DNA of 62,370 bases from Nanobdellati archaeon. Lineage in GTDB: Archaea > EX4484-52 > GLR71. The notes beneath the pieces were generated by a model. The model saw only the letters and a program-made list of their open reading frames with translations, was not told the origin of the DNA and searched no databases. Shown here piece after piece: positions 18,476 to 62,066 of the stretch. Each line of letters opens with the position of its first letter. Positions within the stretch are counted from its first letter, which is position 1. Location: positions 1 through 62,370 of the forward strand of contig JAHYJO010000006.1 of NCBI GenBank assembly GCA_019429125.1. The letters are read 5' to 3'. A program made the position numbers and the translations under genes.

Positions 18476-20572
18476 GTGGATAAAAGAATAGTTTTAATGT
18501 TGATTTTCCTTATTTCTCTTAATTTTTTTTTAACATCTAATGTTTATGCCAACAATCCCCCAAACGCAACAATAGAAAACATCACAGGTGCAGAAAACAC
18601 GAACATAACCTTTACCCTACCAACAACAGATTCAGATGGAGACCCATTGACATACTCATCTGATAACCCCAACATAACATGGAACGGCACACACCTCTAC
18701 TACGAAACCGATTACGACACAGTCCTCCACCCAAACCTGACAAAAACAATAACCGTAAACATCACAGCAGATGACACACTACTAACATACACACAAGAAG
18801 TAAACATAACAATAATTGATGTCAACCGTGCACCTTATTTTGTTTTATATCCTATTAATTCAGAATGTAATATATCTCAAGGTATAACATATACTACCGA
18901 AGATGCAGCCATAAACTGGACAGATTGTAACGTCAGCATGGATAATGTAATATTCGACCCCGATGGTGATGAATTATCTTATTCATTTTATGATTGGGGA
19001 TTTAGTCCATCTCGACTTTCAGTGGAACCTGAGTGCAAACAATCAATCTCTTTATTTCCCGAACCAGCATGTGCTTGGCGTCATGATTCGGTAACAAACA
19101 TGTTCCAATATAAAATTGCTGAGAATTACTTAGGTAATTGTTATACTTACATAAATATAACTGATAGTTATGGTCTTGTATACAGTAATGAATCTACGTT
19201 TTACTGGCAGATAACAACGGGTAATGTTTCCACACAAGATGCACCAATATTGGCCAAACCTTTACCTGTAATAACTTTATTTGAAGACGAATACAATGAC
19301 ACCTGGAATCCAATAGGTTATTTTAATGAATATGATTGTGAATCTCTGTCCTACTCAATCCAAAATTCAACAAACATATTATCCGACAACATAACCTGGA
19401 ATTTCACATCACTAAATGAAAACTGGTTCGGCGAGGAAAATCTAACTTTAACAGCTACAGACAACATAGAAGACATAACAGTTAATCTAACAGTCCGAAT
19501 CCTGCCCGTAAATGATGCACCGATATTATATACACCTGTACCAAACACAACATTTGACGAAGACACAAAAACACAAATAGATTTCAGCAAATATTTCAGT
19601 GATGTAGACAACGAAACACTAACTTACACATTGACTGCAAACACAGAGATATCAATTGAGTCAGTCACAGAAAACTTAATCACCCTAACTTCAACACCCA
19701 ACTGGAACGGTCAAGAAACAATAACAATTCATGCAAGCGACGGACAATACGAAGTTACAGACACATTCAAAATAACAATAAATCCTGTAAATGACGCACC
19801 AACAATTGCCACAATAACTGCTATGTCTGTATATGAAAGAGACAAGATATCACTCACTCCGATAGCAATAGACATAGACAACGATCCATTGACATATTAC
19901 ACAAACAATTCCAACCTAATATGGAACACAACATCAGCATCATTTGACTGGACACCAACCTATAACCAATCCGGAAACTACACAGTAAATGTGACAGTCT
20001 CAGACGGAATCATAAATGATTCAACAATAACGACAATTGAGGTCATAGACAAATATCACAGGAATGATATATTATTAGAGCAGGGCTGGAACCTGATATC
20101 ATATCCTTACACATTAGACAACACATCAGTCACAGACATTATGTCTAGTATAACTTCAGACTACACAATCTGGGCATACAACTCATTGACTAAAATATGG
20201 TCAGAATACGATTCTAATAAAGAACCACATCTAAACAACCTAACAGATATAAGTAACAAAGAAAGTTTCTGGATAAACATATCATTTGACGAAAACCTAA
20301 CCGTAATAGGCACAAGACCTGAAAGCATAACGATAGATTTAAATCAAGGATGGAATCTGATTTCATATCCACTGGACACACAGAAACCGATAAACACGAC
20401 ATTATCGCAAATTGCGGGAAAATACACAATCCTTTGGGAGTTTAATGAAGATACTGGCTGGGACTTGTACAATCCTGATGAATCAAATGTGTCAACAATA
20501 GATTATTTTATACCAGGATCTGGATATTGGATAAATATGACTGAATCCAAAACACTTATCTTCTCTTATTGA
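18476..20572 (+). CDS. Secreted/surface protein with cadherin-like (Big_9/tandem-95) repeats and two C-terminal GWNLIS repeats
   Basis: Signal peptide; DSDGDPLTY, PVNDAP, DVDNETLTY motifs; LEQGWNLISYP and LNQGWNLISYP..GSGYWI. Confidence 0.88.
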   Translation: MDKRIVLMLIFLISLNFFLTSNVYANNPPNATIENITGAENTNITFTLPTTDSDGDPLTYSSDNPNITWNGTHLYYETDYDTVLHPNLTKTITVNITADDTLLTYTQEVNITIIDVNRAPYFVLYPINSECNISQGITYTTEDAAINWTDCNVSMDNVIFDPDGDELSYSFYDWGFSPSRLSVEPECKQSISLFPEPACAWRHDSVTNMFQYKIAENYLGNCYTYINITDSYGLVYSNESTFYWQITTGNVSTQDAPILAKPLPVITLFEDEYNDTWNPIGYFNEYDCESLSYSIQNSTNILSDNITWNFTSLNENWFGEENLTLTATDNIEDITVNLTVRILPVNDAPILYTPVPNTTFDEDTKTQIDFSKYFSDVDNETLTYTLTANTEISIESVTENLITLTSTPNWNGQETITIHASDGQYEVTDTFKITINPVNDAPTIATITAMSVYERDKISLTPIAIDIDNDPLTYYTNNSNLIWNTTSASFDWTPTYNQSGNYTVNVTVSDGIINDSTITTIEVIDKYHRNDILLEQGWNLISYPYTLDNTSVTDIMSSITSDYTIWAYNSLTKIWSEYDSNKEPHLNNLTDISNKESFWINISFDENLTVIGTRPESITIDLNQGWNLISYPLDTQKPINTTLSQIAGKYTILWEFNEDTGWDLYNPDESNVSTIDYFIPGSGYWINMTESKTLIFSY

Positions 20573-20804: not shown

Positions 20805-23800
20805 ATGTCTAGGTCTGTATTATTGTTTGCATTAAGCATAGTATTATCATTGTCGTTTGTTCTATATAGTCCTACAATAAGTCCTGTAATCGAAGCTACA
20901 AGTCCTAATCTTACAGTCAAAACCTATACAGGTCTGCCTTATATGAACATAAATCAAAGTGATAGGTTTCATGTGGCTTTTAGCACATCTTATATTTCCA
21001 ATAAAAATGTAACTATCTATATCTCACCAAATAACCAAACATCAACAAATAATAAACCCTATTTTTTCATAGATAATAATAGTATTGATGAGTCTTGTCA
21101 CAATTGTGACAATTGCTGGTTAAATTCAAAAACCATAAATTATTTAGATGGTAATGAATCACTCTCTGTAGTGAATATAACTTATACTCTAAATAATCCA
21201 AGCATAGGTACAGTCGTCAACATCTACTTCGATGCAACCCCTATAAACCCTCAGGCAATCCTCTACACCAACTGGACCGGACGAATAGACACCGACACCT
21301 ATTCGACTCAGAACCCATTCACAATCAGACCCCCATACCTCACAATTAATGATTTATATGCCCAATCAAGAACAGTCTACCTTGGAGATAATCTGACTCT
21401 TGCAGGATTTATGATAAACAATTCAGACAGCCCAGATTACACAGGTGACGCCTACAACATCACCGCAACAGCAGATAACACAACAACTAGTCTTGAAATC
21501 ATTTCAAACAAGACAATAGATGTAACAGATATATTACATCCTGCTGAAAATCAATTTATTCCTCCCTCTAATTGGACAATCAACGCAAAATCCTTAGGCC
21601 AATCAAACATTTCAATCACTGCAAAAGACCAGACAGGAGCCTACAATGACACAATAAATGTAACAATAAACGTAGTCAACCTGACAGTCACTCCCGGAAT
21701 ACTTGAAGAGAATCCAATACAGGGAGAACCAATCACAATAATCGCAAACATAACAGACAACGCATCTAAACTTTTTCCACCCGATATTGATTTGACCTAT
21801 GCAAACCTGACTTATCTCGCTTTAAATGAGACTTCTGGTAATTTAGAGTTATACGAATCTCAAGCATGTCTGACCGAATCTTTTGAATTAAACGAGACTT
21901 TAAGCGGGACAGACTACACAGTCTTGACCTGCAAGGTTTATATTCCAGAAAGGTCCGGGCTATATAACCTTACCATATCTGTTACTGATCAATATTTTAG
22001 TTATAATGGGACTGAAACAATACTCAAATCAAAGACAACAACCAATACCTCAAACTTCACAGTATCTTTCGGAAAGCTGAACCTGACAAAGACATTTGCG
22101 ATGATGCTTGCAGTAAATGAAACATTTGACAACCCACAAGGTTTTTGGCAATATGGTGAGGATAAAAACCCATTGTGGCAAATTGATTCAGGTATTATGA
22201 TGTATTTAAATTCTCCTAATAGTTCATCTAATGTCTTAAATCTCATAGATGCTCTTCCAGAAAGTACTGATAATTATATTGAGGTCAATATTTATATTCC
22301 TCCTAATTATAATCCACAAATTAATACACCTGTTGGAATAGTCTTTAGAAACACTTTAGATAAATATTATACATTTGGATTTAATGGTGTTATCGAGGGT
22401 GATAATTACAGTTTTACAATTATTAAATATGAAACCAAGGGTACTGTATTGAAATCACAAATAATAACTTCGGGTAATTATTATAATCCTAATTTTATAG
22501 GTAACATTTCTAAATACTCTATATATATTATTGGAAATGAATTCATAGGCTTTATAAATGATCTGGAAGTAGTAAGGGGTGTTGATGAAGATCCAATTGA
22601 ATATGGAAAAGTTGGTATTTATTCATCATATATTAATTTTTTTGACAATTTCAAAGTCTACAACATCCTTGACCCTAAAGATGCTCTTCTTCTGAACCAG
22701 ACATTCAAGATACAATCATTTGCAGAAGTTGAAGATGGTGACCTCTGGGGTCCGACAAATTACACAATTTCAAAAAGCAATTCAAAGATATCAAACCAGT
22801 CTGCCATGGGCTTTCAGAATGCATCAAATTTAACATTGGGTTCCTGGCAGATAATTAACTGGGGTGAATTTGATACAGATATTTTAGGTTACACAAATTT
22901 TACAATAGAGATCACCTCCTCAAAAGGCACAACGGCCACACAACATATAAACACGACAATAGTGCCCTTGATTGCATACATAGGTGAATCTGTAATCAAT
23001 TACAGCCATCCTAATATAAATTACATCAATGTCACCGGTTTCGGCCCCTCACTAAATGGCCCAAATGGCATGTTTTCGGTCTCAATAAAACCAGAATATT
23101 CAGAAACAGAATATACAGTAACAAATTTCACGTTTGATTCTACACTTTCAGACATAACAAACAATAATTATGTATATAGCAACAATTATACTTCCACTTA
23201 TCTGTCCGGAAACTACGACCTTGACATATCAATGAGAAACCAATACAATAAAAACATCTCAAACACGACAGAATCATTCTTTGTCAATTATGGGTATTTG
23301 AGTATTATAATACTTGCAAATCCTGGAGCAATTACATGGGGTGATTCGGCAATGCAATCAGTTGATGTATATGCATATGGTGGTGATGTAAGGAACATTA
23401 CATTAAATATGACCTCTTTGACACCGAATTATCTTGATTTATATCTTGGTGAAATATCTAATCGGACTGAAATGGCGATTTTGAATAATCAATTTAAAAC
23501 CTATACCTGGAATATTTCAGCAGCATATTCAGCAGGTTATGCAAACCTATCTGTTTCGGGGAATGCGACCTATGGCGGTAATGATACAACAAATAAATAC
23601 AATATAAATATAACTAGTGGTGTGGATACCGAAGCACCAAAAATATTAAATGTTTCATTAAAATACGACATTGTCAATCTCAAAGAAAATATGACAATTT
23701 ATGCAAAGATAACTGATGATTATGGTGTGCATACTGCAGTTACACAAATTTTCTATCCAAATCTATCTGGTTATTCAGAAAACTATACAATGACTTTTGA

Positions 23801-25973
23801 TTCTACTATAGACCTGTATTATTTCACATTCACAAACACGACAATATTGACAAATGACACAGAATCATATAATATACAGATATATGCAAATGACTCTAAA
23901 TCTCTTTTGAACGCATCAGACAACAGCACAACTTTTAACACGACAAACTACTATCATATAGACCCTAATGCATTGAACTATAACCTATTCAATTTAGGCG
24001 AATCAATGATTGCAACAATTCCAGTCCACACAATAAATAATAACACCATTACAGATTTCAATTTAACTCTTATGCTAAAAAAGTCAGGTGCTGAAAATGC
24101 CACAGTTCTTCTCCCAAACAACAAGACAGATTCTTACACTTATTACATCAATGCGTCAGACCCTACAGGACTTTACACCCTTGATATGAATGTCTCAAAA
24201 GACGGAAACACAGCAAACTTTTCTGGAAATTTCACAGTAAGCAATGTTTACACTCCTAACTTTATACAACCTACATCAAACTACCAGACTCAGCAACCAC
24301 AAGCAAATCTTTATGATTTTGCAAGTCCTTTAATAGAGGTATTTAATGCGCGAGGTGAGCTGGTACAGTCTTGGGGTGTCAATGTCTGGATAACTTGTGC
24401 GCAACCATCAAATATCTCTTTATTTATTAATGGGATTTGGCAACATTATGTAGATTCAGGCACCACAGCATGTCAGATGCCATCTTTTGAAGGACCTTTT
24501 GACATCTTAGCATTCGTACACGACACCTACAACAATTCCGGGACATCAAGCCTACAGATGAACGTGCAAGCATATGGTAGTCCTCCTCCTAGTACAGGTG
24601 GCAGCATATCACCAGGTAGTTCATTTCCTCCTTACACACCTGATTTCATACCTTACTCAAACATCTCAAATTACTCGTCCTACAACGAAAATCTAAATAT
24701 TTTTTCTTTTGAGTTAGGTATGCGCGACATAAACATGTTTCAGGGTGAAAATAGAGAGATTACAATAAATCTTAACAATGTGGGTCGTGATGACCTAAAC
24801 CTTTCTGCATCATACGAATCCAGATGCTGTTCTATTGACTTGAACGAGACCTATTTTGTAAAATCAGGTAACAATCTCGCAATATCTTTGGTAGTATCAT
24901 CAATGCTATCTGAAGAGCCCGGCACATATATTATGAAAATAAAGATTTCAAACGGTGATAAACTACAAGAACAGAATCTAAATATCCGATTAGACAAAAA
25001 TCAATTAATCAGTGATTTTGAATACATTAAAAATGATTTTAAGAGAATTAAGAACATTTTAATTGATTTGAATAGATTCGGAATTGATGTAGGACCTTAT
25101 ATGGAATTATTTGGATATTCAGAAACACTTATGTTAGCAACACAACAATCAATAATGTCAAATGATCTACAATCTTTTGACGCTCAGATTGTACAATTAT
25201 CTGCGTTATTAAATTCTCTAAATATGAATCTGACCGAAAAAGAAAATATAATATGGGTTATCAAGAACAGATATAACCTCGCAGGTCTTTTAATATCATT
25301 AATCCTATTTGTGTTTGCTCTTAAATATTATTTATTCCCTTTAATATTATTGAGCATTGAATATAAACAGTTAAAATCAAAAGAGTTCAACCTTGCAGCT
25401 GAAGAGAAATCAACCGAAAAGGAATATTTTACTCGTGTAATTGATAAGTCTACATTCAACAACATATTGACTAAAAAGCATGAACAATTGACAAATATAA
25501 GGACTCGTATGGTTCATATCCGAAAATCAATAAAACTATTGATGCATGGTCATAATGTCCCTATAGAATATTTAAATGAAACGCATAATACTGGAAAAAA
25601 ATCAAAAAATAAGTCAAAATCTATATTTGGTGCGAAACCAATAAAACTTAAGTCATTTATGGGTTTTACCAATCCTTTATCGTATCTGTCTCTCCGAAAA
25701 GAAGAAACATCCCCTACCTCAAATCAAAAAACACGTACACCCATAAATTTAGCTGAAAAGACACCTATGTATCCCAAAGGACAGAATTTTTCATCATCTC
25801 AGACTTCAACCCCTGTTATGTCTAAGACTGGAAAAAAATTATCAAAGATTGGGAAAAACAAGAATCTAGGTGATGAAATGCGCGAGATATATGGTGGCAA
25901 TCTGAAGAAAGAAGAATCAAAAGAATCATTCAATGACATAAAGAAAAAGATAAACAATATATTTGATGATTGA
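20805..25973 (+). CDS. Large (1722 aa) cell-surface glycoprotein paralogous to the C-terminal part of the 2857-aa protein, with an internal ConA-like/DUF1080-like domain
   Basis: Signal peptide; Ig-like repeats; shared NVSKDGN, CC-containing domain, coiled coil, TM and EEK.TEKEYFTRVIDK.TFN tail; GKVGIYSS..FFDNFKV motif. Confidence 0.9.
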   Translation: MSRSVLLFALSIVLSLSFVLYSPTISPVIEATSPNLTVKTYTGLPYMNINQSDRFHVAFSTSYISNKNVTIYISPNNQTSTNNKPYFFIDNNSIDESCHNCDNCWLNSKTINYLDGNESLSVVNITYTLNNPSIGTVVNIYFDATPINPQAILYTNWTGRIDTDTYSTQNPFTIRPPYLTINDLYAQSRTVYLGDNLTLAGFMINNSDSPDYTGDAYNITATADNTTTSLEIISNKTIDVTDILHPAENQFIPPSNWTINAKSLGQSNISITAKDQTGAYNDTINVTINVVNLTVTPGILEENPIQGEPITIIANITDNASKLFPPDIDLTYANLTYLALNETSGNLELYESQACLTESFELNETLSGTDYTVLTCKVYIPERSGLYNLTISVTDQYFSYNGTETILKSKTTTNTSNFTVSFGKLNLTKTFAMMLAVNETFDNPQGFWQYGEDKNPLWQIDSGIMMYLNSPNSSSNVLNLIDALPESTDNYIEVNIYIPPNYNPQINTPVGIVFRNTLDKYYTFGFNGVIEGDNYSFTIIKYETKGTVLKSQIITSGNYYNPNFIGNISKYSIYIIGNEFIGFINDLEVVRGVDEDPIEYGKVGIYSSYINFFDNFKVYNILDPKDALLLNQTFKIQSFAEVEDGDLWGPTNYTISKSNSKISNQSAMGFQNASNLTLGSWQIINWGEFDTDILGYTNFTIEITSSKGTTATQHINTTIVPLIAYIGESVINYSHPNINYINVTGFGPSLNGPNGMFSVSIKPEYSETEYTVTNFTFDSTLSDITNNNYVYSNNYTSTYLSGNYDLDISMRNQYNKNISNTTESFFVNYGYLSIIILANPGAITWGDSAMQSVDVYAYGGDVRNITLNMTSLTPNYLDLYLGEISNRTEMAILNNQFKTYTWNISAAYSAGYANLSVSGNATYGGNDTTNKYNINITSGVDTEAPKILNVSLKYDIVNLKENMTIYAKITDDYGVHTAVTQIFYPNLSGYSENYTMTFDSTIDLYYFTFTNTTILTNDTESYNIQIYANDSKSLLNASDNSTTFNTTNYYHIDPNALNYNLFNLGESMIATIPVHTINNNTITDFNLTLMLKKSGAENATVLLPNNKTDSYTYYINASDPTGLYTLDMNVSKDGNTANFSGNFTVSNVYTPNFIQPTSNYQTQQPQANLYDFASPLIEVFNARGELVQSWGVNVWITCAQPSNISLFINGIWQHYVDSGTTACQMPSFEGPFDILAFVHDTYNNSGTSSLQMNVQAYGSPPPSTGGSISPGSSFPPYTPDFIPYSNISNYSSYNENLNIFSFELGMRDINMFQGENREITINLNNVGRDDLNLSASYESRCCSIDLNETYFVKSGNNLAISLVVSSMLSEEPGTYIMKIKISNGDKLQEQNLNIRLDKNQLISDFEYIKNDFKRIKNILIDLNRFGIDVGPYMELFGYSETLMLATQQSIMSNDLQSFDAQIVQLSALLNSLNMNLTEKENIIWVIKNRYNLAGLLISLILFVFALKYYLFPLILLSIEYKQLKSKEFNLAAEEKSTEKEYFTRVIDKSTFNNILTKKHEQLTNIRTRMVHIRKSIKLLMHGHNVPIEYLNETHNTGKKSKNKSKSIFGAKPIKLKSFMGFTNPLSYLSLRKEETSPTSNQKTRTPINLAEKTPMYPKGQNFSSSQTSTPVMSKTGKKLSKIGKNKNLGDEMREIYGGNLKKEESKESFNDIKKKINNIFDD

Positions 25974-30548: not shown

Positions 30549-32528
30549 GTGTTCTATATGCTTATAGGCGAAGTTTACGGTAAGACAGGCACAAAAAAGT
30601 TCAGGTTCTACGCCTACAAAGAGATAAAAAAACAAGATTTTGTCACCATCAAAGACGAAGAAGGCCACTGGATTCTCTGCAAGGTAGACATAGTCGAAAG
30701 CATATCTGAAGACCGAAAGAACATAAAGAACATGGCAATCTCAGAAGTCATAGGCTACCGTGAAGACGGGATATTAAAAACCCTAAAAAAGCCTATACGC
30801 CCCAATTCTCTAGTATACAGCGCAGACAAGAAAATAATACAGGATACATTAAAGCTTGACAAGGGTGGGCTCTATATTGGTCTTCTTGACTCAAACAAAG
30901 ATGTAGAAGTATATCTTGACCCGAAAGGCCTAGTCACAAAACACGTGACAGTCCTTGCATCGACCGGTGCGGGAAAATCCTATACGGTAGCAGTCATCCT
31001 TGAAGAACTTCTTGAAAAGAAGATACCTATAGTCATCCTTGACCCTCATGGTGAATATATCAGCTTAAGATTTGCAAATGATGAAAAACGAGAACTTGAC
31101 CTGATGGACAATTACCGGATAAAGCCAAAAGCCTATAAGGTTGTAGAGTACAGCCCAGACCCAAGAGTCAACCCCGGTTCAGAACAGCTAACATTCTCTG
31201 ACAAGAACCTAGGGGCTATGGAACTCTCGCAAATCAGTCCTTCAAACACTACAGCGTCCCAGAAAGGTCTTCTTTTTACCGCGATAAGAGAACTTAAAGA
31301 TCGAGGCGACTACACGCTTAAAGACATAATAAACAAGATTGATCAGACTGAAAGTGCAGCTAAATGGAACCTGTTGAGCATGCTTGAACTTGTAAAAGAC
31401 ATAGGCATATTTTCAGACGAACCCACACATATTGATGACATGGTGGTGCCAGGTCAGGCAACCGTAATCAATTTCAGAGGCATCGCTCCAGAAATACAAG
31501 GCATCGTTGCCTATAAGCTTATCCACGACCTTTTCGAGTTGCGCAAAGTAGGACGAGTGCCTCCTCATTTCTTAATTCTTGAAGAGGCGCACAATTTCTG
31601 TCCTGAAAAAGAAGTTATAGTGTCTTCAAAAATAATAAGGACTATTGCATCTGAAGGCCGAAAGTTCGGTCTAGGTCTTTGCGTCATAAGCCAGCGACCA
31701 GCCCGTGTAGACAAAAACATCCTGTCTCAGTGCAACACACAGATTATATTAAAGATTACAAACCCCAACGACCTTAAAGCCGTAAGCTATGCAGAAGGCA
31801 TGACTGAAGGTGTCGAAAAAGAGATAACCAATCTGAATCCCGGAACAGCATTAATTTTAGGTCAAGGTCTGCCGTTGTTTGTAGACATAAGAGTACGGAA
31901 AACAAAACATGGTGGCACAACTGTAAACATAACTGAGCAGCCAAAGACTGGCAAGAAGATACTCTCTTTCAACACAATACCCAAAGCAAACATAGAATCA
32001 CGTCTTGGCGTCCTGAAAGTATTGTATTACCCCTGCTACTACATCGTAGCTGGTGTAAAGACCTATCTTTTCGAAGGCATGCAAGGTAACGTAATCTATA
32101 ATGAAAAAAATATAATAAAACAGCAAGAACTTGATTTCACAGCATCTGAGCTTGAACTCATGAAAGTCCTGACGGGTGAGATGACAACAGATCTTATATT
32201 GGAAAAATCAACTATATCTTTTGGTGAGCTTATAAATGTCCTTGCGACTATGATTGAAAAACATATTGTTAAAAAGAGGACAGATGACCGTGGTATTGAT
32301 TTATATGCCTCTGAAAACTCTTTTGTTATTCACCAATTCTCAGAGAAGCCAACACTTGTTGTGATTGATGGAGACATATTGAAGCCTAAACTGACAGAGG
32401 AACAGATATCCGAAAAGGCGAAAGCGCTATTCCCTAAAGTTGATACTGTCCAGTTGGCATACTATCCGTATTTCATGGGCAAGAATTTCATGATAGATGG
32501 GATAACCGGTCTCAAGAAAGACATTTAA
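30549..32528 (+). CDS. HerA/DUF87-family ATPase with N-terminal HAS barrel and C-terminal extension
   Basis: KHVTVLASTGAGKSY, ILDPHGEY, ILEEAHNF, IASEGRKFG, SQRPA, SQCNTQ. Confidence 0.92.
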   Translation: MFYMLIGEVYGKTGTKKFRFYAYKEIKKQDFVTIKDEEGHWILCKVDIVESISEDRKNIKNMAISEVIGYREDGILKTLKKPIRPNSLVYSADKKIIQDTLKLDKGGLYIGLLDSNKDVEVYLDPKGLVTKHVTVLASTGAGKSYTVAVILEELLEKKIPIVILDPHGEYISLRFANDEKRELDLMDNYRIKPKAYKVVEYSPDPRVNPGSEQLTFSDKNLGAMELSQISPSNTTASQKGLLFTAIRELKDRGDYTLKDIINKIDQTESAAKWNLLSMLELVKDIGIFSDEPTHIDDMVVPGQATVINFRGIAPEIQGIVAYKLIHDLFELRKVGRVPPHFLILEEAHNFCPEKEVIVSSKIIRTIASEGRKFGLGLCVISQRPARVDKNILSQCNTQIILKITNPNDLKAVSYAEGMTEGVEKEITNLNPGTALILGQGLPLFVDIRVRKTKHGGTTVNITEQPKTGKKILSFNTIPKANIESRLGVLKVLYYPCYYIVAGVKTYLFEGMQGNVIYNEKNIIKQQELDFTASELELMKVLTGEMTTDLILEKSTISFGELINVLATMIEKHIVKKRTDDRGIDLYASENSFVIHQFSEKPTLVVIDGDILKPKLTEEQISEKAKALFPKVDTVQLAYYPYFMGKNFMIDGITGLKKDI

Positions 32529-52929: not shown

Positions 52930-53659
52930 TTATTTCAATTTTTTTCTTATTTTTTCTGTATCTTCTCTGGTTATATCCTCAATTATTTGTTGTATAGTAT
53001 CTACAAAATCATCAACAGTTTCCATATTATCTTCAAACTCATCTTTTTCAACAGTCCTGTCTGTATAATATTGCAAATTGATTCTTTGTTTTTTTGCAAC
53101 TTTTATTTCCTTAAACTGGTCTGATGGTACTTGTTTAGCTAAATTTTGTCTTACTTGCTTACGATTTTTTTGATAGGGTCATTATTTGTTGAAATATTTT
53201 TAAGTTATAATTTTCTACATTACTTGCATGCTATCGATTTTACAAAAAAGGAGTAAATATTTTTTAACAAAAATTAACTACACATTTTCAAGCTGTAGCT
53301 ATTGATTTTATAAAAAGTATAATGTATGTAACTTACATCATAATGGTCGTAGCATGCCGATTATTTTTTTGCTAAACAAGTACGTCTGCTGTAATAATAT
53401 CTGAAAATAAATATTCTGCAATTTTCAATGAACAGTTATGATTCTTGCATTCAATTCCCATTTTTAATAACAGTGCAGTTAGTATATGGTACCTTGCATA
53501 ATATGCAACTGTAGATTTCCATTCAGTATCCTCTTTTGATATTGAACGTAAAACAACTAAATCATGTCTAGATTTTTGAAGATACGCATGTGCAAGATTA
53601 TCATTTGGTTCAATAATTCTTGCCCATTTTTTAAGACAGATATCAATAGATTTTTCCAT
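52930..53659 (-). pseudogene. HEPN toxin gene interrupted by a MITE
   Basis: 5' part AYYARYH..MGIECKNHNC..DIITAD; 3' part QFKEIKVAKKQRINLQYY..; rejoins in frame after removing the insertion and one TSD. Confidence 0.88.
53127..53383. mobile_element. 257-bp MITE with 13-bp perfect TIRs and 8-bp TSD
   Basis: GTACTTGTTTAGC (53127-53139) / GCTAAACAAGTAC (53371-53383); flanks GTCTGATG (53119-53126) and GTCTGCTG (53384-53391). Confidence 0.88.
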
Positions 53660-54224
53660 AATTGACCTCCCACAATATATCAACAAATGTTTCTGTATTT
53701 TTTAAGCATATATGATCTTTTACAATTTCAGAAATTAGAGGGTCTTTTTGAAAAAATCCATTTATGAATTCATCCGATTTCATATATATTGCCTGGATAT
53801 TTTTTCCAGTCTCCTTTTCAAATCTTTCAAAATCATATTTTTCATCTGATATTATAAGCAAATCTATATCACTATCTTTTCGTTCTGTACCTTTAGCATA
53901 TGACCCAAAAATAATAACAGTTGAGGTCATATCTAAATATTTTATAAGAGTTGATATAATTCTCTTGTTTAAAATTGCCATGCGCATCGTATTCTCAGCA
54001 TTGATTACTTTTAATTTGGTGAGCTGGTTCTTGGAATTAAGAAAATATATTTTCTGTCGTCCTGAAATTTTTGAATCCAATAACCTTTCATTTTCCATAA
54101 CTTTTAATGTTTCGGACACAGTCTGTCTGTTTATACTGGTAACTATTGCTATTTCTCTCACATACATTTTAATGCTATAGTCTGGGAGGAATGCTTGAAG
54201 TATTGTGTTAACATTGTCTGACAT
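53643..54224 (-). CDS. wHTH + minimal nucleotidyltransferase (MNT) antitoxin
   Basis: MYVREIA..INRQTVSETL (wHTH); IFGSYAKG..SDIDLLII; overlaps the HEPN start. Confidence 0.9.
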   Translation of the reverse strand: MSDNVNTILQAFLPDYSIKMYVREIAIVTSINRQTVSETLKVMENERLLDSKISGRQKIYFLNSKNQLTKLKVINAENTMRMAILNKRIISTLIKYLDMTSTVIIFGSYAKGTERKDSDIDLLIISDEKYDFERFEKETGKNIQAIYMKSDEFINGFFQKDPLISEIVKDHICLKNTETFVDILWEVNYGKIY

Positions 54225-54343: not shown

Positions 54344-55021
54344 TTATTTCAAAAACACACCAGTGATTCCTTCCATGTTCTGTGATTGCGCATCCTCAAG
54401 TGTTGCATCACCTACGAATATGTTTGCGTCATTGCCACCAATTCTGAATCTTTCAGTATCATTGTCATAGACAGTGTCTACATAGATACCTGGTTTATAT
54501 TCATTGGAGAAATCATATTGTTTGAAATTCTGATATGTTGAACCCCAGATTATGTTTATAGGATTTGCTAACATATTACGAAAATCTTCATCCACAAATA
54601 CATTTATTTCCATAATGTCATCTTTAATTGTAGGGACTATGTATGCTTCTGGTATTTCATTTTTTGAATCCATGTTAGGTGTGATACGCAATAGTACAAA
54701 TGTTTCATTTTCTTCAGTTTGGAATATTACTTCATTTAAAAACATATGTCCTTTTAAGATACCCATATGTTCAAACTTGACTTTGTAAAGACCATCATTG
54801 TATTGCATGCTTGCAGCATTGTCTTCATATCCGTCGCCGTCAGTGACTTCACTGACATTTATTGATGGATTGTAAGTTTCTGTGTTATTATCATTTGTGT
54901 GAAACGAAAGGCCCATAATAATCAGTATAACTATTATCAGACCTATAATTATATGTTTTTTATTCATATTCTGAATATATTTTTTAGTATCCATAATAAT
55001 CAACTTTATCTCTGTGGCCAT
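54344..55021 (-). CDS. Membrane-anchored extracellular hypothetical protein
   Basis: KKHIIIGLIIVILIIMGL anchor followed by an acidic beta-rich domain; start uncertain. Confidence 0.65.
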   Translation of the reverse strand: MATEIKLIIMDTKKYIQNMNKKHIIIGLIIVILIIMGLSFHTNDNNTETYNPSINVSEVTDGDGYEDNAASMQYNDGLYKVKFEHMGILKGHMFLNEVIFQTEENETFVLLRITPNMDSKNEIPEAYIVPTIKDDIMEINVFVDEDFRNMLANPINIIWGSTYQNFKQYDFSNEYKPGIYVDTVYDNDTERFRIGGNDANIFVGDATLEDAQSQNMEGITGVFLK

Positions 55022-57651
55022 GCAGACATTTTATCTACATGGTACGAAACACCTTCATAAATCATACCACTTGCGAAAATAAGTACAGGTACAACAACAC
55101 CTGATGCATAAAACGTTAATCCTGTAATAATTGTATCTGCTACGGCAAGTGTTATCATTGTTGTACCTTTTAAAGTTCCACTAAGAACATCAACACTATT
55201 AAAGCAATAATTTGTACCCTCAAAAGTTTTATCCAATTCTACAGATACAGTCAATGAATCTATATTATCTTTTGTTTTCATAGCCCATGGATTATAAAAT
55301 ACTGAAGGTCTTTCGGTCAATTGAACACATTTTTTAATACCATTACCTTCTGCATCCATATATAATGGTATAATATTAAGAGTGGTTGTAAGTCCATTAT
55401 TATAATCCAACGCATTCTGTGCCTGTATATTAAATTCTTCTGTCTTAACTTCTTCTTGTGTATCTAGGCGATAATATGTTTCAGCACCTTCAATTTCTAC
55501 CGTATTTGACCAACCAGCATATTCATTACCCTCCGGTCTGTAGTTTGTACTAATTCCATTTCGCACATCAATAGTTCTTATGATTGGGTTGTCAGTATAA
55601 ATTGATTCGTCTGTATCACTTCTAGCATATGCCCCCTGGCATTTTGATGATAATGGTGGATTAATCCCTGTCTCAACAAAACATATATTATTATCTGTTT
55701 CTTTTACATCAAAAGTCGCACTATCTCGATCATATTGGAATTCACCAATGATTTCAATTTCATGTCCCATTACTGTAATAGTTTCGGGATTTTTCTCTGT
55801 TATCTCAGAATAAAGAACTTGTAAAAATCCGAGGGGTGTTGTATATAAAAACCCTCTTTTTAATACTCCACCAGTATTGTGTATTGTTGCACTTGTAACA
55901 TATTCATCATATGTGTTACAATCACTCTCAGCAGACCATTCATAGTATCCTATATCATAAGTTCCAATTGGATCTTCAACTTTTCGTCCACAACAGACAG
56001 CTTGTTCACTTTTACATTCAGTATAATAACAACCAATTTGTTCATGTTTTACAATGACTTTTTCAGTCTTACATGGACTGACTAAGAAAAATCGTTTTGG
56101 ATATTGAAATGATTCTCTTTTCAAAGCTATATAATAATAATTTAGTGTATCTGCAAGTTTTTCAGTCTGGACTGCATAATAATTTTTTTTATAGCCTAGA
56201 GAATTTATTCCAATTGGATTATATTTTTCATTTGAGTTGTCTATATAAGCTGCCATAACTCCTAGTCCTGTAAAATATGAACAGGCAACAATGCCTAATG
56301 ATATTTTTTTGACAAGTATCGCACAAGTACCGAGTCCATTTATTCCATCAGCAGCTATATCATTGGGTATTGCGGGACTTAAAATATCAAGTGTTCCTAA
56401 CTGCATGACAGGGTCATTATACATTTTTGTATTAAAGAAAAATTGTGTAAATTCCTTTGTCTGTTGTAATATACTTTCTCGTTGTGCTTTAGGCATATGT
56501 TGTACAATATCATTACCTTTGGTAATTACAGTATTTATTTCTTTATTGGTCAATGATGCACCACCATCACCAATTAAATTAGAATATGTATTCCATTTTA
56601 TTATTTTTTGTAAAGGTGTTATGCTTTTTGAGACTGTACTTCCTGTAGTTACATAATGTATTAAATTTAATTGATGCAATGCAATATCATCAAGTTCTTT
56701 AGGCTTAATATTATGTCCCATTTTAGTTACTAATTCTTCTTGTAATTCAAATCTTAATTTTGCAAATGTTGTTTTTCCAGCAGTTGTTTGTATTGCTTCA
56801 AATGTTTTAATCGTTGTAATCTTTGCGACATCTTCAACAATATCTTCAGCAGCTTGTAGTGTTAGTCCTTCTACATCAACTAATCTTTTTGTAATCTTTA
56901 ATTCTTTTGTGATATACTTATCACTTATGTCAAATATGTTCTTGAATGCTAGTAATCCTGCTTGTTTATTTCGGAATGTTTTTAAAGTAAAAATTCCAAC
57001 TGTTTTTGCAATATTGTCATCTAGAGTTTTATATAAACTTTTTGCAATTGATATTTGTGGTACTAATTTTGTAGCTCTATCTCCTATGCTTACAACACCT
57101 TTTGATATACCTTTACCAATACCTTTACCTACAACTGGAACAACATTGAAAACTCCACCAACAATGGCTCCAGCCCAGCTGAAATCTTCAATTCTAACTT
57201 GCCAGTCTGCAGCTTGATCTTCTGGGAATGCTTCATAATAAACAATACAATTTGGGTCGCCCATACCCGTAATCCATCCTGCAGGGTCACTTTCATCATA
57301 CTCTGGATTTTTTGTCAACTCAAATCCTTGGACTTCACAATTATAATTTTCACCACTACCATAACATGCAGCAACTTTTGTCCCGAACAATTTCTGTGGT
57401 GGACATAATTCAGTTACATCAATACCTGCATGGTGCATACCTGTGCAGTTGAGTGCATAAGCTAAAGCCTGTATAGAATTAACAGAATTAGTATCACAAC
57501 CCGATGTCAGCTTTGGAAACATAAAATTATTAAGCGCATTAAACAATGGCTGACCAATATCTGATGTCACAAACATGATACCTGCGCCTAAGATAACAAG
57601 ACCTATAATTAAGTTAGCGACCAATAGTAACATACCTTTTTTATTTCTCAT
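55006..57651 (-). CDS. 881-aa class III signal-peptide (pilin-like) protein with internal hydrophobic hairpins
   Basis: MRNKKG|MLLLVANLIIGLVILGAG; Cys-paired domains; three further hydrophobic Gly/Ala-rich segments. Confidence 0.75.
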   Translation of the reverse strand: MRNKKGMLLLVANLIIGLVILGAGIMFVTSDIGQPLFNALNNFMFPKLTSGCDTNSVNSIQALAYALNCTGMHHAGIDVTELCPPQKLFGTKVAACYGSGENYNCEVQGFELTKNPEYDESDPAGWITGMGDPNCIVYYEAFPEDQAADWQVRIEDFSWAGAIVGGVFNVVPVVGKGIGKGISKGVVSIGDRATKLVPQISIAKSLYKTLDDNIAKTVGIFTLKTFRNKQAGLLAFKNIFDISDKYITKELKITKRLVDVEGLTLQAAEDIVEDVAKITTIKTFEAIQTTAGKTTFAKLRFELQEELVTKMGHNIKPKELDDIALHQLNLIHYVTTGSTVSKSITPLQKIIKWNTYSNLIGDGGASLTNKEINTVITKGNDIVQHMPKAQRESILQQTKEFTQFFFNTKMYNDPVMQLGTLDILSPAIPNDIAADGINGLGTCAILVKKISLGIVACSYFTGLGVMAAYIDNSNEKYNPIGINSLGYKKNYYAVQTEKLADTLNYYYIALKRESFQYPKRFFLVSPCKTEKVIVKHEQIGCYYTECKSEQAVCCGRKVEDPIGTYDIGYYEWSAESDCNTYDEYVTSATIHNTGGVLKRGFLYTTPLGFLQVLYSEITEKNPETITVMGHEIEIIGEFQYDRDSATFDVKETDNNICFVETGINPPLSSKCQGAYARSDTDESIYTDNPIIRTIDVRNGISTNYRPEGNEYAGWSNTVEIEGAETYYRLDTQEEVKTEEFNIQAQNALDYNNGLTTTLNIIPLYMDAEGNGIKKCVQLTERPSVFYNPWAMKTKDNIDSLTVSVELDKTFEGTNYCFNSVDVLSGTLKGTTMITLAVADTIITGLTFYASGVVVPVLIFASGMIYEGVSYHVDKMSAWPQR

Positions 57652-57679
57652 GCACTCATCAACTAATTGTATCTCTGAT

Positions 57680-57816
57680 CATATATCATTTATTATGTCT
57701 TATCTTCATATATCATTTATTATGTCTTATCTTCATATATCATTTATTATGTCTTACCTTCATATATCATTTATTATGTCTTATCTTCATATATCATTTA
57801 TTATGTCTTATCTTCA
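57680..57816. repeat. 27-bp tandem repeat, 5 copies (VNTR), overlapping the stop codon of the 395-aa gene
   Basis: CATATATCATTTATTATGTCTTATCTT at 57680, 57707, 57734 (one substitution), 57761 and 57788; no spacers. Confidence 0.95.
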
Positions 57817-58988: not shown

Positions 58989-59180
58989 CTAACCTGAAAA
59001 CACATTCTTAATCATCATGGGCACAAAACCGACCCCATAATTTCCGAATTTTCTAGCTGCATAAGTTGCAGCAACAATCAATATTGAAAATGCTAAAAGC
59101 CCCATACATATCTTGATGATAAGTTCAAGGTCCATTGCGCCTTTCCGACTCTTGATAAGATAATATGTAATTTCTAACAT
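58989..59180 (-). CDS. Short class III signal-peptide (pilin-like) protein
   Basis: KSRKG|AMDLELIIKICMGLLAFSILIV. Confidence 0.7.
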   Translation of the reverse strand: MLEITYYLIKSRKGAMDLELIIKICMGLLAFSILIVAATYAARKFGNYGVGFVPMMIKNVFSG

Positions 59181-59198
59181 CTGTTCACCGTTAAAATA

Positions 59199-59702
59199 TT
59201 AAGGACTTGTTGGTCCTGCACATGTCTTTGTGAGTCCTGCCCCACTACCTACAACTTGACAGCATTGATTATCATTACTAGTATCAAGCACCAGCCACCA
59301 TAGTCTACCTTCAGGCCCACTTTTTGTTTTTGGGTCATACTTAAATGCTGCCATTGTGCATTCAACAGGACTACATTTACTGATATCACCTACACATTGT
59401 TCTGATATGCAAGCATGAAGTTCATTAGGTTTTAAAATGTCATATTCAGGATATAAAGTACAATACATCTCATTACCACATTTGTTCTTACAATTTTCAG
59501 TATTGCAGGTACCAACAATACATTCAACACCAGTATCGCTTATGCAAGGGTCAACAAATGATATACAACATTGTCCCTGATTATCATAATCACATACTTG
59601 TTCAGTCTTCATATTCATGAAATTGATAAGCATAAATCCAATTATCATTACAAGAAACAGCGACATTATAACATAAAAGATTGAAAGTCCACTGCGCCTC
59701 AT
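59199..59702 (-). CDS. Cys-rich class III signal-peptide (pilin-like) protein
   Basis: MRRSG|LSIFYVIMSLFLVMIIG; many Cys in the mature domain; start reassigned to the ATG at 59702. Confidence 0.72.
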   Translation of the reverse strand: MRRSGLSIFYVIMSLFLVMIIGFMLINFMNMKTEQVCDYDNQGQCCISFVDPCISDTGVECIVGTCNTENCKNKCGNEMYCTLYPEYDILKPNELHACISEQCVGDISKCSPVECTMAAFKYDPKTKSGPEGRLWWLVLDTSNDNQCCQVVGSGAGLTKTCAGPTSP

Positions 59703-59797
59703 ACTATATTGTTGTATTCTTGCGTATATAACATTTTTGCATCTTTTTTTTGAAAATCTCAAATAAATATATTAATGCTATATACCAAATCATAATC

Positions 59798-59986
59798 ATG
59801 TTCGTCTATCCTTATGTTGAAACGTTAAATAGAGTCCGAAAAGGTCAAGATATAGGGATATCAAAAATTGCAGCATTAGTGCTCGTGTTTGCAGGTATTC
59901 TTGTATTCATTGCAGTCTTATATACTATGATGGCAAAAGGTAAAGGTGTAATAGATATAATAGATCCGTTAGCATACAGTAATTGA
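59798..59986 (+). CDS. Short class III signal-peptide (pilin-like) protein
   Basis: RVRKG|QDIGISKIAALVLVFAGILVFI. Confidence 0.7.
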   Translation: MFVYPYVETLNRVRKGQDIGISKIAALVLVFAGILVFIAVLYTMMAKGKGVIDIIDPLAYSN

Positions 59987-59999
59987 AGGTGTAATAAAT

Positions 60000-60266
60000 A
60001 TGAGAAAAGGAATGACAATCGCAATAACTCTTGTAATGGCAATGCTTGTAGCCTTAGTTGTGGCATTTGTCTTGATATCAATGTTTAGCACATCAATGAA
60101 CAAAGGTGGTGCTGGGTTGACCGGTTCTTTAGATTCTACAACTGATGATGTAACAGGTCTTGCATGCAGTACTCATTGCGCAACTTGCTGTATTACTAAT
60201 GTTAAGTCTTATTGTGAAAATACAGGTAACGGTGCGCCTGCCGGTTGTAAATGTAATAATTGTTAG
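60000..60266 (+). CDS. Mini-pilin-like protein with 8-Cys C-terminal domain
   Basis: MRKG|MTIAITLVMAMLVALVVAFVL; CSTHCATCC..C..CKCNNC. Confidence 0.8.
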   Translation: MRKGMTIAITLVMAMLVALVVAFVLISMFSTSMNKGGAGLTGSLDSTTDDVTGLACSTHCATCCITNVKSYCENTGNGAPAGCKCNNC

Positions 60267-60275
60267 TTGATTTTT

Positions 60276-60521
60276 ATGCGAAAAGCTATGACACAATCAA
60301 TATCTCTTATAACTGTCATAGTGGTAGGTCTTTTTGTTGTAGCAATTCTAATTGTCATGGTCGGCGACAAGATGGGTAAGGCATCTGATGTAATTGGTCA
60401 AAATACAGATATCACAGAAGATAGCCTAGAATGCAAGACTGAATGTTCTGCCTGTTGTGCGACTGGTTATGGTGGTACTATCTGTGCGCGCCAGTTCATA
60501 GCCTGTGATTGTAGTTGTTGA
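60276..60521 (+). CDS. Mini-pilin-like protein with 8-Cys C-terminal domain
   Basis: MRKA|MTQSISLITVIVVGLFVVAIL; CKTECSACC..C..CDCSC. Confidence 0.8.
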   Translation: MRKAMTQSISLITVIVVGLFVVAILIVMVGDKMGKASDVIGQNTDITEDSLECKTECSACCATGYGGTICARQFIACDCSC

Positions 60522-60704: not shown

Positions 60705-60716
60705 TGACATATGTCA
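60705..60716. promoter_or_regulatory. Perfect palindrome TGACATATGTCA over the start codon of the second MNT gene
   Basis: Identical in sequence and register to 54219-54230. Confidence 0.7.
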
Positions 60717-61259
60717 CGAATAAATTACAATAATGAAATAATAGGATGCCTCCTAATAAAACCAAATCACATACGAGGGCTTGCAAAAGACTTAAACACC
60801 AATCAGACTACAATATCACGAAAAATCCAGGATCTTTATGAACAAAACATTGTTGATTTTAGATTTGAGGGAAAAAATAAGGTATTTTTCCTAAAAAAGA
60901 CACTTGAAGCCTGTGAATCAGTTTTGATTGTAGAGCGTCATAAGTTAATTGATATATTACAGCTGTATCCGCACTTAAGACGAATTATAGAGATAATAAA
61001 ATCCGATAGAAGAATCAATATGGCTGTAATATTTGGGTCTTATGCAAAACATAGTGCAACAAAAACAAGTGATATTGACCTTTATGTGGATACTGAAGAT
61101 AGAATACTGAAAGAGATATTATCTGATATAGATTCAAAATTAAGCATAAAAATCGGGAAATATGACAAAGCAAATCTTCTCATAAAAGAGATTGAAAAAG
61201 ATCATATAATTATAAAGGGTGTAGATGAATTTTATGAAAAAAACAAATTTTTTGAGTAA
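60711..61259 (+). CDS. wHTH + MNT antitoxin
   Basis: HIRGLAKDL.TNQTTISRKI; IFGSYAK..SDIDLYV; EIEKDHIIIKGVDEF. Confidence 0.9.
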   Translation: MSRINYNNEIIGCLLIKPNHIRGLAKDLNTNQTTISRKIQDLYEQNIVDFRFEGKNKVFFLKKTLEACESVLIVERHKLIDILQLYPHLRRIIEIIKSDRRINMAVIFGSYAKHSATKTSDIDLYVDTEDRILKEILSDIDSKLSIKIGKYDKANLLIKEIEKDHIIIKGVDEFYEKNKFFE

Positions 61260-61707
61260 GTTATTTGATGAAAAAAAGATTCAGTTTGTTACACCTAGTA
61301 AAGACATAAAAAATGCTTATATTCAAAGATCTGAGGAATCATTATCTTCTGCAAAAGTACTATTCAAAATAGGGAATCTCAAAGATTCAGTTGCCTTATC
61401 GTATTATTCTATGTATCATTGTCTTCTTGCTTTATTATTTTGTACGGGTATAAAATGCAAAAATCACACTGCCTCAATACTAATTTTAAAAGAAGTGTTC
61501 GGATTAAATAATGATAGTATTTCAAAAGCGAAAAAAGAGAGAATTGATAAGCAGTATTATGTGGACTTTAATATTACTCAGGCTGAAGTTTATGATACTA
61601 TGTCTATTGCAGAGGATTTCATTACAGAATTACGAGAATTTATAGAAAAATTAAATGCGCTGGATATAAAACAGTATCAAAATATACTACAGCGTATCCT
61701 AATATAG
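61234..61707 (+). CDS. HEPN domain toxin
   Basis: SYYSMYH..LALL..GIKCKNHTASI..AKKERIDKQYY. Confidence 0.88.
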   Translation: MKKTNFLSKLFDEKKIQFVTPSKDIKNAYIQRSEESLSSAKVLFKIGNLKDSVALSYYSMYHCLLALLFCTGIKCKNHTASILILKEVFGLNNDSISKAKKERIDKQYYVDFNITQAEVYDTMSIAEDFITELREFIEKLNALDIKQYQNILQRILI

Positions 61708-61766
61708 TTTTCATCTCACAAAATTATATATAATCTGCGCAATAAAAGAAAGTTACAGTGTTTACA

Positions 61767-62066
61767 ATGGCATTCTCAAAGACACAAAAAAAGGGTGAAA
61801 TGACAATTGAGACAGTCATAATCATAGTCTTATTTCTTGCAATATTAGCAATTATAATATTAGTTGTCAGTTCATTGACAGGTAAAGGTTCAGATTCCAT
61901 GGGGACGACTATTGAGAGTACAGGCAGTGGCGCACTCTGCGAGATAGAATGTATGAAGTGTTGTAGTGGTCAAGTAAATATTAATTGTAATCAGTATATT
62001 ATAGATTCTAATTATGGTTCTTGTTGTGTTGATACAAAAACGGGTGAGGAGGAATATGGTTGTTAA
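61767..62066 (+). CDS. Mini-pilin-like protein with 8-Cys C-terminal domain
   Basis: QKKG|EMTIETVIIIVLFLAILAIII; CEIECMKCC..C..CC..C. Confidence 0.82.
   Translation: MAFSKTQKKGEMTIETVIIIVLFLAILAIIILVVSSLTGKGSDSMGTTIESTGSGALCEIECMKCCSGQVNINCNQYIIDSNYGSCCVDTKTGEEEYGC

Follow-up and report, generated by a model that had tools for sequence, protein, structure and literature searches.

Known Systems Closest to the Locus

Large or modular type IV pilins and minor-pilin tip complexes are known, exemplified by the modular pilins of Streptococcus sanguinis and by PilY1 with the minor pilins, and DPANN archaea live attached to hosts. The present analysis concerns P0001, a protein of 881 amino acids (aa) with an ATG start, encoded at 55006..57651 on the minus strand of a 62,370-nucleotide stretch from a Nanobdellati archaeon (assembly GCA_019429125.1, contig JAHYJO010000006.1), together with the gene cluster around it. 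This stretch, hereafter the window, spans an entire contig of a genome of 1.16 Mb and 93% completeness; it has a G+C content of about 33%, and its archaeal character is seen in the genes for MC1, KaiC and isoleucyl-tRNA synthetase (IleRS). Our analysis revealed that P0001 is a conserved member of a large family without annotated relative, and that this family specifically avoids the N-glycosylation sequon (N-x-S/T), totally so in its central module. It is plausible, and tentatively the reading that we prefer, that P0001 forms a large, pilin-like surface subunit in an assembly conserved among small-genome archaea (cluster-2 DPANN), and that its glycan-free middle packs on a bilayer or on the surface of a partner.

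In archaeal type IV pilus loci, large proteins with signal peptides have been interpreted as minor pilins or as adhesins (Makarova, Koonin and Albers, 2016, PMC4858521). DPANN lie outside the coverage of that work, the term occurring 0 times. The euryarchaeal Epd/EppA-type and other archaeal type IV pili resemble the P0001 cluster in having many fast-evolving Cys-rich pilin-like proteins (PMC4858521), but no family common to the two was detected. For cluster-2 DPANN, two conserved type IV pilus-like loci have been described (Hamm et al., 2024, PMC11291902). These share with the P0001 cluster their occurrence in Aenigm-, Woese-, Pace-, Nano- and Nanohaloarchaeota and a proposed role in cell-cell interaction; however, they are defined by CpaF, TadC and coiled-coil proteins, which the P0001 cluster lacks within about 8 kb, and a P0001-like protein is not mentioned in the covered part of that paper. 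A 2026 survey finds few archaeal type 4 filament (T4F) systems in Nanobdellati (PMC13705601). Cryo-electron tomography has recorded filaments, nanotubes, attachment organelles and cytoplasmic bridges in DPANN, and the covered parts of the reports state that the proteins are unknown (PMC11420986; PMC11329633). A full-text literature search returned no description of the P0001 family or cluster, and the cluster was not found in the covered portions of the archaeal pilus papers PMC4858521, PMC13705601 (S10 Fig and S1-S3 Tables being outside the scope) and PMC11291902. Archaeal pilus surveys may thus not yet cover it.

Like the modular type IV pilins, P0001 combines a prepilin-type N-terminus with a predicted small alpha/beta head and large extra domains, and it is encoded among other pilin-like genes in a genome that holds a prepilin peptidase, ATPases and TadC proteins. 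Unlike them, it has no sequence relation to any pilin family and a fold resemblance of Z 3.7-4.3 only, it has four additional segments of weak hydrophobicity as well as a C-terminal hairpin that is conserved, its locus is devoid of ATPase and TadC genes, and its family avoids N-glycosylation.

Architecture of P0001

An earlier note, written from the letters of the window alone, had described the open reading frame (ORF) 55006..57651 as a pilin-signal protein with pre-toxin-like and pore-former-like segments. The ORF and all segments quoted there are real, each having been located in the 881-aa translation. The N-terminus (aa 1-29, 57565..57651; all parts of P0001 are on the minus strand) reads MRNKKG|MLLLVANLIIGLVILGAGIMFV, with M as the first residue after the bar, and it matches the class III pattern of basic residues, then G/A, then a hydrophobic helix, in keeping with the pilin signal of that note. 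The pattern was found in 25 of the 38 family genes from the related loci and the window by an ad hoc regular expression of our own, some of the non-matching genes having doubtful start codons. On a hydrophobicity scale that was crudely applied (crude dG), this helix is the only strongly hydrophobic segment (family median -2.0), and in the family its N-flank holds 4.08 K+R per 15 aa.

The helix is followed by a conserved acidic six-Cys domain (aa 30-158, 57178..57564) that ends in the signature GDPNC(I/L)VYYEAFPE..AADW; this weakly pilin-like alpha/beta head is the block matched by most distant relatives. Next comes a Gly-rich, weakly hydrophobic segment with a Lys/Gly-rich tail (aa 159-185, 57097..57177; crude dG +5.5), which contains WAGAIVGGVFNVVPVVGKGIGKGISKG and had been likened to PT-TG pre-toxin segments. 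The central module (aa 186-435, 56347..57096), earlier called a Lys-rich helical region, is a variable stretch of about 11 predicted helices without Cys or sequons. It is followed by a pair of hydrophobic helices, H430-447 and H450-477 (aa 436-470, 56242..56346), with conserved C443 and C457; the hydrophobic hairpin quoted earlier is found here, LGTCAILV lying at aa 440-447 and IVACSYFTGLGVMAAY at aa 454-469. A beta-rich block (aa 471-580, 55912..56241) carries the second superfamily signature, YIDN.NEKYNP.GIN ... RFFL.SPCKTEKV..KHE..GC, in which S525, P526 and C527 are invariant in the family alignment A5. The variable Cys-rich part after it (aa 581-828, 55168..55911) ends in a conserved GIK.C ... 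EG.NYC, and the protein closes with a Gly/Ala/Thr-rich hydrophobic hairpin, H822-846 and H853-876 (aa 829-881, 55009..55167), with the conserved C-terminus ...VDK.SAWP.R. The terminal hairpin of the earlier description was recovered at aa 829-865, with the conserved SAWPQR end after it. Of the 18 Cys of P0001, 6 lie in aa 52-135, two are C443 and C457, and 10 lie in aa 527-816, while aa 180-435 contain none. The four hydrophobic segments other than the N-terminal helix have family median crude dG values of +4.9 to +7.3, with 5.0 at the first Gly-rich segment and 6.7 and 4.9 at the two helices of the C-terminal hairpin.

An AlphaFold2 model of P0001 built from 84 sequences had a mean predicted local distance difference test (pLDDT) of 67.6 and a predicted template modelling score (pTM) of 0.69. 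Confidence was high for aa 50-150, 240-420, 450-540 and 800-830, with pLDDT of 85-98 in the acidic six-Cys domain, about 80-85 in aa 240-420 and about 90 up to aa 540; it fell below 50 in aa 160-228, 582-690 and 722-762. A Foldseek search of the whole model against PDB and BFVD gave nothing at E<=0.1. With VIA-align the whole model recovered only generic helical hairpins for aa 819-881 (Z<=8.4), among which two retroviral fusion cores were tied with dozens of unrelated hairpins. The pore-former or fusogen fold suggested earlier thus received no meaningful score from either program when the whole model was used, neither the central module nor the 471-580 block having been searched alone. A separate model of aa 1-180 (pLDDT 77.6) gave six rows aligning the globular part, four of them type IV pilins (4ixj, Z 4.3, root-mean-square deviation 3.2, 58 aligned; 6qvf, Z 3.9; 6gut, Z 3.7; 9laa, Z 3.7; all Z <5), while Foldseek with the same model gave nothing at E<1.

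The P0001 Family

P0001 matched zero Pfam families at E<=1, although the HMMER filters may drop very weak matches, and a search of PDB sequences gave no match at E<=10. For P0001 to P0004 and five small neighbours, nothing was above the cut-off in Pfam, NCBIfam or PHROGs. In the ESM Atlas the best score was 0.77, to unnamed archaeal clusters, which is a lead only. Relatives are nevertheless numerous. A word-indexed search gave 9 homologues with 38-79% identity and 77-100% query coverage, which align end to end (alignment A1) and two of which are labelled archaeon or Aenigmarchaeota. In an exhaustive search of representatives, 149 proteins reached E<=1e-3, of which 44 reached <=1e-10 and 7 reached <=1e-30; most of the 149 are 800-1700 aa long and have in common the blocks at about query positions 100-190, 460-550 and 764-880. 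The conservation of P0001 across the 9 full- or near-full-length homologues, and of the three blocks across the 149 representatives, indicates that its sequence features exceed chance. Forty distant members were also compared with Pfam: none was over the cut-off, 39 were without any family and one had a sub-threshold match to ribosomal S7.

The mean identity of eight full-length orthologues was 80% in aa 1-29, 75% in 30-158, 42% in 159-180, 30% in 181-435, 51% in 436-470, 70% in 471-560, 37% in 561-790, 55% in 791-828 and 46% in 829-881. P0001 is single-copy in its own genome. The family profile matched 22 of 42 genomes of the phylum and, of the 7 other genomes in the genus, 6. Scanning species-representative genomes for a sequence pattern turned up 41 loci, the records of which bear, with the few exceptions given below, the labels Aenigmat-, Woese-, Nanoarchaeota or Nanobdellati; five checked genomes with the family are 0.9-1.7 Mb in size. 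Viral contigs gave 42 pattern matches, none of which was confirmed as a relative of P0001.

Two Aenigmatarchaeota loci (L083 and L086) carry short forms of 407-562 aa, which keep both signature motifs and the C-terminal WP end, are devoid of one internal hydrophobic segment and have an extra C..LCLKT....PL..C motif. Their class III-like neighbours are different, and no P0002-like gene (see below) accompanies them.

Avoidance of N-Glycosylation Sequons

Sequons were counted by region in the 61 members that carry both signature motifs, and expected numbers were taken from shuffles. The middle held 0 sequons where 73.6 were expected (z about -10). The depletion extended to the first hydrophobic segment and its flank (0 vs 6.0), the second hydrophobic region and its flank (1 vs 38.1) and the C-terminal 60 residues (1 vs 15.3), and it was partial in the first (49 vs 116.8) and second (30 vs 114.6) outer domains. 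Control motifs in the middle occurred at close to their expected frequency, with observed/expected ratios of 0.92-1.08 for S/T-x-N, N-S/T-x, Q-x-S/T and D-x-S/T and of 0.87 for N-x-A/G.

The background of the same genome is different. The sequon observed/expected ratio was 1.14 for 652 ORFs without a hydrophobic segment, 0.91 for 38 ORFs with at least four such segments and 1.58 for 72 N-terminally anchored ORFs, among which P0001 is the most depleted (1 vs 6.9). Controls from the window agreed with those from the genome, and cytoplasmic controls ranged over 0.82-1.14 overall. Since a cytoplasmic domain has no reason to shun sequons, the middle would appear to lie outside the cell and to have to stay unglycosylated, and a cytoplasmic location of this Lys-rich region is unlikely.

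Other families of the cluster are depleted as well, with observed/expected ratios of 0.20-0.47; the P0003 family, for instance, has 10 sequons vs 23.9 expected. The P0002 family is enriched (53 vs 36.9). Three giant surface proteins encoded elsewhere in the window are enriched about two-fold, namely those at 8380-16953 (2857 aa, 117 vs 61.0 expected), 18476-20572 (698 aa, 33 vs 14.2) and 20805-25973 (1722 aa, 80 vs 36.3), two of the three having Ig-like and cadherin-like domains. With the giants enriched and the P0001 cluster depleted, it seems that the cell has a glycosylated coat and a bare apparatus. Other class III-like proteins of the genome, on contigs C26 (34222-37933) and C27 (12036-15246), are sequon-rich (e.g., 17 vs 7.8 and 11 vs 4.0), and thus glycan avoidance appears specific to the P0001 cluster and not a general trait of the pilins of this organism.

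A Conserved Cluster of Pilin-Like Genes

The earlier observation of a pilin signal gains from the genomic context, as P0001 sits in a pilin-like gene cluster that is conserved among DPANN archaea. In the same genus the order is constant: on one strand it runs from IleRS through a P0002-like gene and P0001 to the P0003-like genes, of which there are one or two, and ends with the genes of a 63-aa and a 17-Cys protein, while the divergent side has a 78-aa gene and then two or three small 8-Cys genes. Apart from P0002, each protein of the cluster in the window begins with a basic stretch, G/A and a hydrophobic stretch. The 63-aa protein (58989-59180, minus strand) and the 187-aa, 17-Cys protein (59199-59762, minus strand), both with class III-like N-termini, are encoded by the first genes of the minus-strand operon (58989..59762). 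P0003 (57801..58988, minus strand; 395 aa, 10 Cys, class III-like N-terminus) lies upstream of P0001 in the same operon, and same-genus relatives have one or two copies in the same place. The divergent operon (59750..60521, plus strand) encodes three small pilin-like proteins, one of 78 aa and two of 88 and 84 aa with 8 Cys each, and a further 8-Cys pilin-like paralogue of 102 aa is found at 61758..62066 on the plus strand. Of 36 loci with a family gene, 20 contain the small Cys-rich class III family, and several more class III-like families recur in fixed order. What is conserved, therefore, is a gene order with at least six families bearing prepilin-type N-termini together with the constant partner P0002.

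P0002 (54344..55021, minus strand) is anchored by one N-terminal segment, lacks a G/A cleavage motif and has an outer domain poor in Cys. Its family is present in 26 of the 36 loci and stands directly downstream of 25 of the 38 family genes, on the same strand in 17 of these 25 by our own ORF calls. The overlap of this gene with the P0001 stop that had been noted earlier, 16 nt, exists only from the first ATG of 54344-55021, and a true overlap is not established. The N-terminus of the P0002 family aligns near Met10 (54994), which is 12 nt past the P0001 stop (alignment A8, 25 relatives), and the spacing between the two genes in same-genus relatives is 3-4 nt. P0001 and P0002 are therefore tightly coupled, with 54994 as the probable start of P0002.

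The machinery of a type IV filament is encoded elsewhere in the genome: six T2SSE ATPases and seven TadC matches, all over the cut-off, and an A24 prepilin peptidase (PF01478, 31.4 bits, over the cut-off) were found on other contigs.

Proposed Role and Alternative Readings

In the reading that we prefer, the pilin-like N-terminal helix would hold P0001 in the membrane of the archaeon itself. The A24 peptidase of the genome may process the protein, which may then dock into a type IV filament that one of the ATPase/TadC machines encoded elsewhere assembles, with the C-terminal hairpin perhaps as a second anchor. By the predicted topology, all of P0001 from about aa 30 to 820 would be outside the cell. 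Its two disulfide-bonded domains would form the conserved core, while the working part would be the Cys- and glycan-free helical module with the Gly-rich, weakly hydrophobic segments around it. This part would be left bare since it packs tightly on a lipid bilayer or on the surface of a partner, most likely upon contact with a partner cell. An exposed bare module between Gly-rich segments leaves a membrane-engaging role possible, as far as the sequence can tell. The relevance to host contact that the earlier note had seen is supported, as is its pilin signal, while penetration of a host membrane would be a further step.

Several points weigh against this reading. A Pfam comparison of 58 neighbours, which lie within about 8 kb and come from the window and from 10 related loci, gave no pilus ATPase, TadC or peptidase, so that a filament machine is linked to the cluster only indirectly. 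A search for sequencing runs that contain the locus listed none, RNA runs included, and expression data were not found. The resemblance of the modelled P0001 head to pilins, resting on matches of Z 3.7-4.3, is weak and at most suggestive. The hydrophobicity values come from the crude scale mentioned above, and the segment 450-469 (crude dG of 0.9-4.5 in the clade of P0001) would be a decent transmembrane candidate. The middle is nearly Cys-free, and in P0001 it is net basic. Its composition is the most cytoplasm-like of the protein, with a log-likelihood ratio of 0.095 vs a mean of 0.175 and a minimum of 0.099 for cytoplasmic windows. The flanks of the first Gly-rich segment contain 1.05 K+R per 15 aa before it and 3.44 after it, and 3.61 D+E before and 0.46 after, and so they resemble the flanks of a helix that truly crosses the membrane from outside to inside. 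Charge asymmetry, Cys-poor basic middle and composition would all fit a cytoplasmic loop. Finally, the avoidance of sequons is selection against glycosylation and is silent on the role of the bare surface.

The best-surviving rival, itself unlikely, is a sharper version of the preferred reading: the Gly-rich segments and helical module of a pilus-tip or surface protein would insert into the host membrane, where they form a pore, fuse membranes or nucleate a cytoplasmic bridge. It would agree with an exposed module that bears neither glycans nor disulfides, as would be expected if this part has to refold or enter a bilayer, with four weakly hydrophobic Gly/Ala-rich segments at conserved positions, with a prepilin N-terminus that is the only firm anchor, and with the spread of the family over DPANN lineages whose contact proteins are reported, in the covered parts of the sources, to be unknown (PMC11420986; PMC11329633). 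Gly-rich hydrophobic segments beside a Cys-free helical region are also a point of likeness to PT-TG toxins, colicin-type pore formers and class I fusion proteins; unlike these, P0001 has no domain match, no C-terminal polymorphism and, with the whole model, no fold match above background. Indeed, no weighty sequence or whole-model fold match to pore formers, fusogens or PT-TG was obtained, the middle is modelled as a bundle of short helices and not as a long coiled coil, and its net charge varies from -9 to +19 across members. Furthermore, there is no evidence that this organism has a host or forms bridges, and a bare surface is equally explained by packing in an oligomer or on the own membrane.

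Second among the rivals, and rather improbable, is a multi-pass platform, in which aa 159-176, aa 450-469 and the C-terminal hairpin span the membrane of the archaeon itself and the middle is cytoplasmic, so that P0001 would be a base or anchor coupling the assembly to cytoplasmic factors. The charge asymmetry of the first segment does obey the positive-inside rule, a Cys-free middle between two Cys-rich domains would be natural (515 Cys in 15,783 residues of the first domain, 14 in 15,213 of the middle and 412 in 15,375 of the second domain over the 61 members, 51 of which were found by hand counting to have no Cys in the middle), and the basic middle with its composition leaning to cytoplasmic and the hydrophobicity of 450-469 in the P0001 clade also speak for it. 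However, between the first and second signature motifs there is 1 sequon vs about 118 expected, with 0 vs 73.6 in the middle, at ratios of 1.14 for the cytoplasmic proteins of the genome and 0.91 for those with at least four segments. The number of hydrophobic segments between the two outer domains, by a lenient threshold, is one in 34 of the 61 members, two in 11, three in 5 and none in 9, and with an odd number the membrane would separate the two disulfide-bearing domains. A segment comparable to aa 436-470 is absent from most distant members, and some short Aenigmatarchaeota members are without the first or the second segment, or without any after the first motif. The pLDDT is below 50 over aa 160-228. 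Kinship to TadC/PilC/FlaJ was not detected either: there was no T2SSF match in Pfam, and hhalign of alignment A5 against six TadC-like proteins of the genome gave a probability of 0.13 over 2 columns.

What weight remains goes to a bare structural stalk or oligomer without membrane role, or to something unforeseen.

The polymorphic toxin analogy of the earlier note (pre-toxin segment, swappable C-terminal toxin, downstream immunity gene) is highly improbable and is rejected: apart from a superficial Gly/Val/Pro/Lys-rich linker likeness of aa 159-185 and the small membrane-anchored gene immediately downstream, which polymorphic toxin loci also have, P0001 shows no PT-TG, toxin or other Pfam domain at E<=1, neither PT-TG nor a toxin family appears in the 40 distant members, and the gene is single-copy in a genome without an orphan C-terminal cassette array. 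A swappable C-terminal toxin was sought and discarded, as homologues cover 77-100% of the query and the C-terminal blocks keep 46-70% identity. The region after the supposed pre-toxin segment is indeed the most variable part (30% identity), but it can still be aligned, and the blocks that come after it are conserved at 70, 55 and 46%. In place of an immunity gene there is a single conserved partner family across distant genomes, P0002 (26 of 36 loci, 26 sequences with shared motifs), which is not an immunity protein and would be a structural partner.

Significance for DPANN Contact Structures

The P0001 family is a concrete candidate for DPANN host-contact machinery, being spread over several lineages and encoded in a recurrent pilin-like operon. 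That it is in fact a host-contact component which is displayed on its pilin-type anchor at the tip or base of a short filament, opens its bare central module on contact, lets its Gly-rich segments enter the host bilayer, tethers the two membranes and nucleates a pore or bridge is less probable than either of the two leading rivals. If entry into the host bilayer were true, P0001 would be a protein of cells that acts like a fusogen or forms bridges and has no kinship to the known fusogens, and P0002 could be a glycosylated chaperone or clamp for it. The family also offers a testable signature, namely zero N-glycosylation sites in about 15,000 residues of the central module while other surface proteins are sequon-rich, and this signature is a cheap route to more parts of the same apparatus in metagenomes. 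Should the family occur in a cultivated co-culture, localisation and knock-down would become possible.

Additional Features of the Region

A few loci of the family carry odd organism labels, 'Campylobacterales bacterium' for L053 and 'uncultured Methanosarcinales' for L061-L065, L068, L088 and L091. These records hold the archaeal DPANN cluster, in one case adjoining an archaeal-type IleRS. L053 shares contig number, coordinates and length with L013, which comes from a genome of the genus of the window, and the genomes of L053, L061, L063 and L091 are of 0.9-1.7 Mb. For these reasons the labels are distrusted; they look wrong, or the contigs mis-binned.

A HerA/VirB4-like ATPase with DUF87 and HAS barrel is encoded at 30549-32528, about 23 kb from the cluster, and no link between the two was seen in other genomes. 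The cluster itself is bracketed by nucleotidyltransferase/HEPN (MNT/HEPN-type) gene pairs at 53372-54224 (minus strand) and 60711-61707 (plus strand), the latter being inserted ahead of the 102-aa paralogue. Both pairs are absent from these positions in two same-genus relatives, and in a distant genome the corresponding cluster is broken by a similar pair (L040, 4317-5322). It thus seems that the cluster attracts such insertions.

Finally, the spacer between P0003 and P0001 is filled by a 27-bp tandem repeat of 5.1 copies with 98% matches (57679-57816), while the equivalent spacer in a same-genus relative is only about 40 nt long. The first copy holds the last P0003 codons and the stop, and each unit therefore repeats a tiny ORF (MIYEDKT*). 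The repeat may be a length-variable spacer that affects the coupling of P0003 and P0001.

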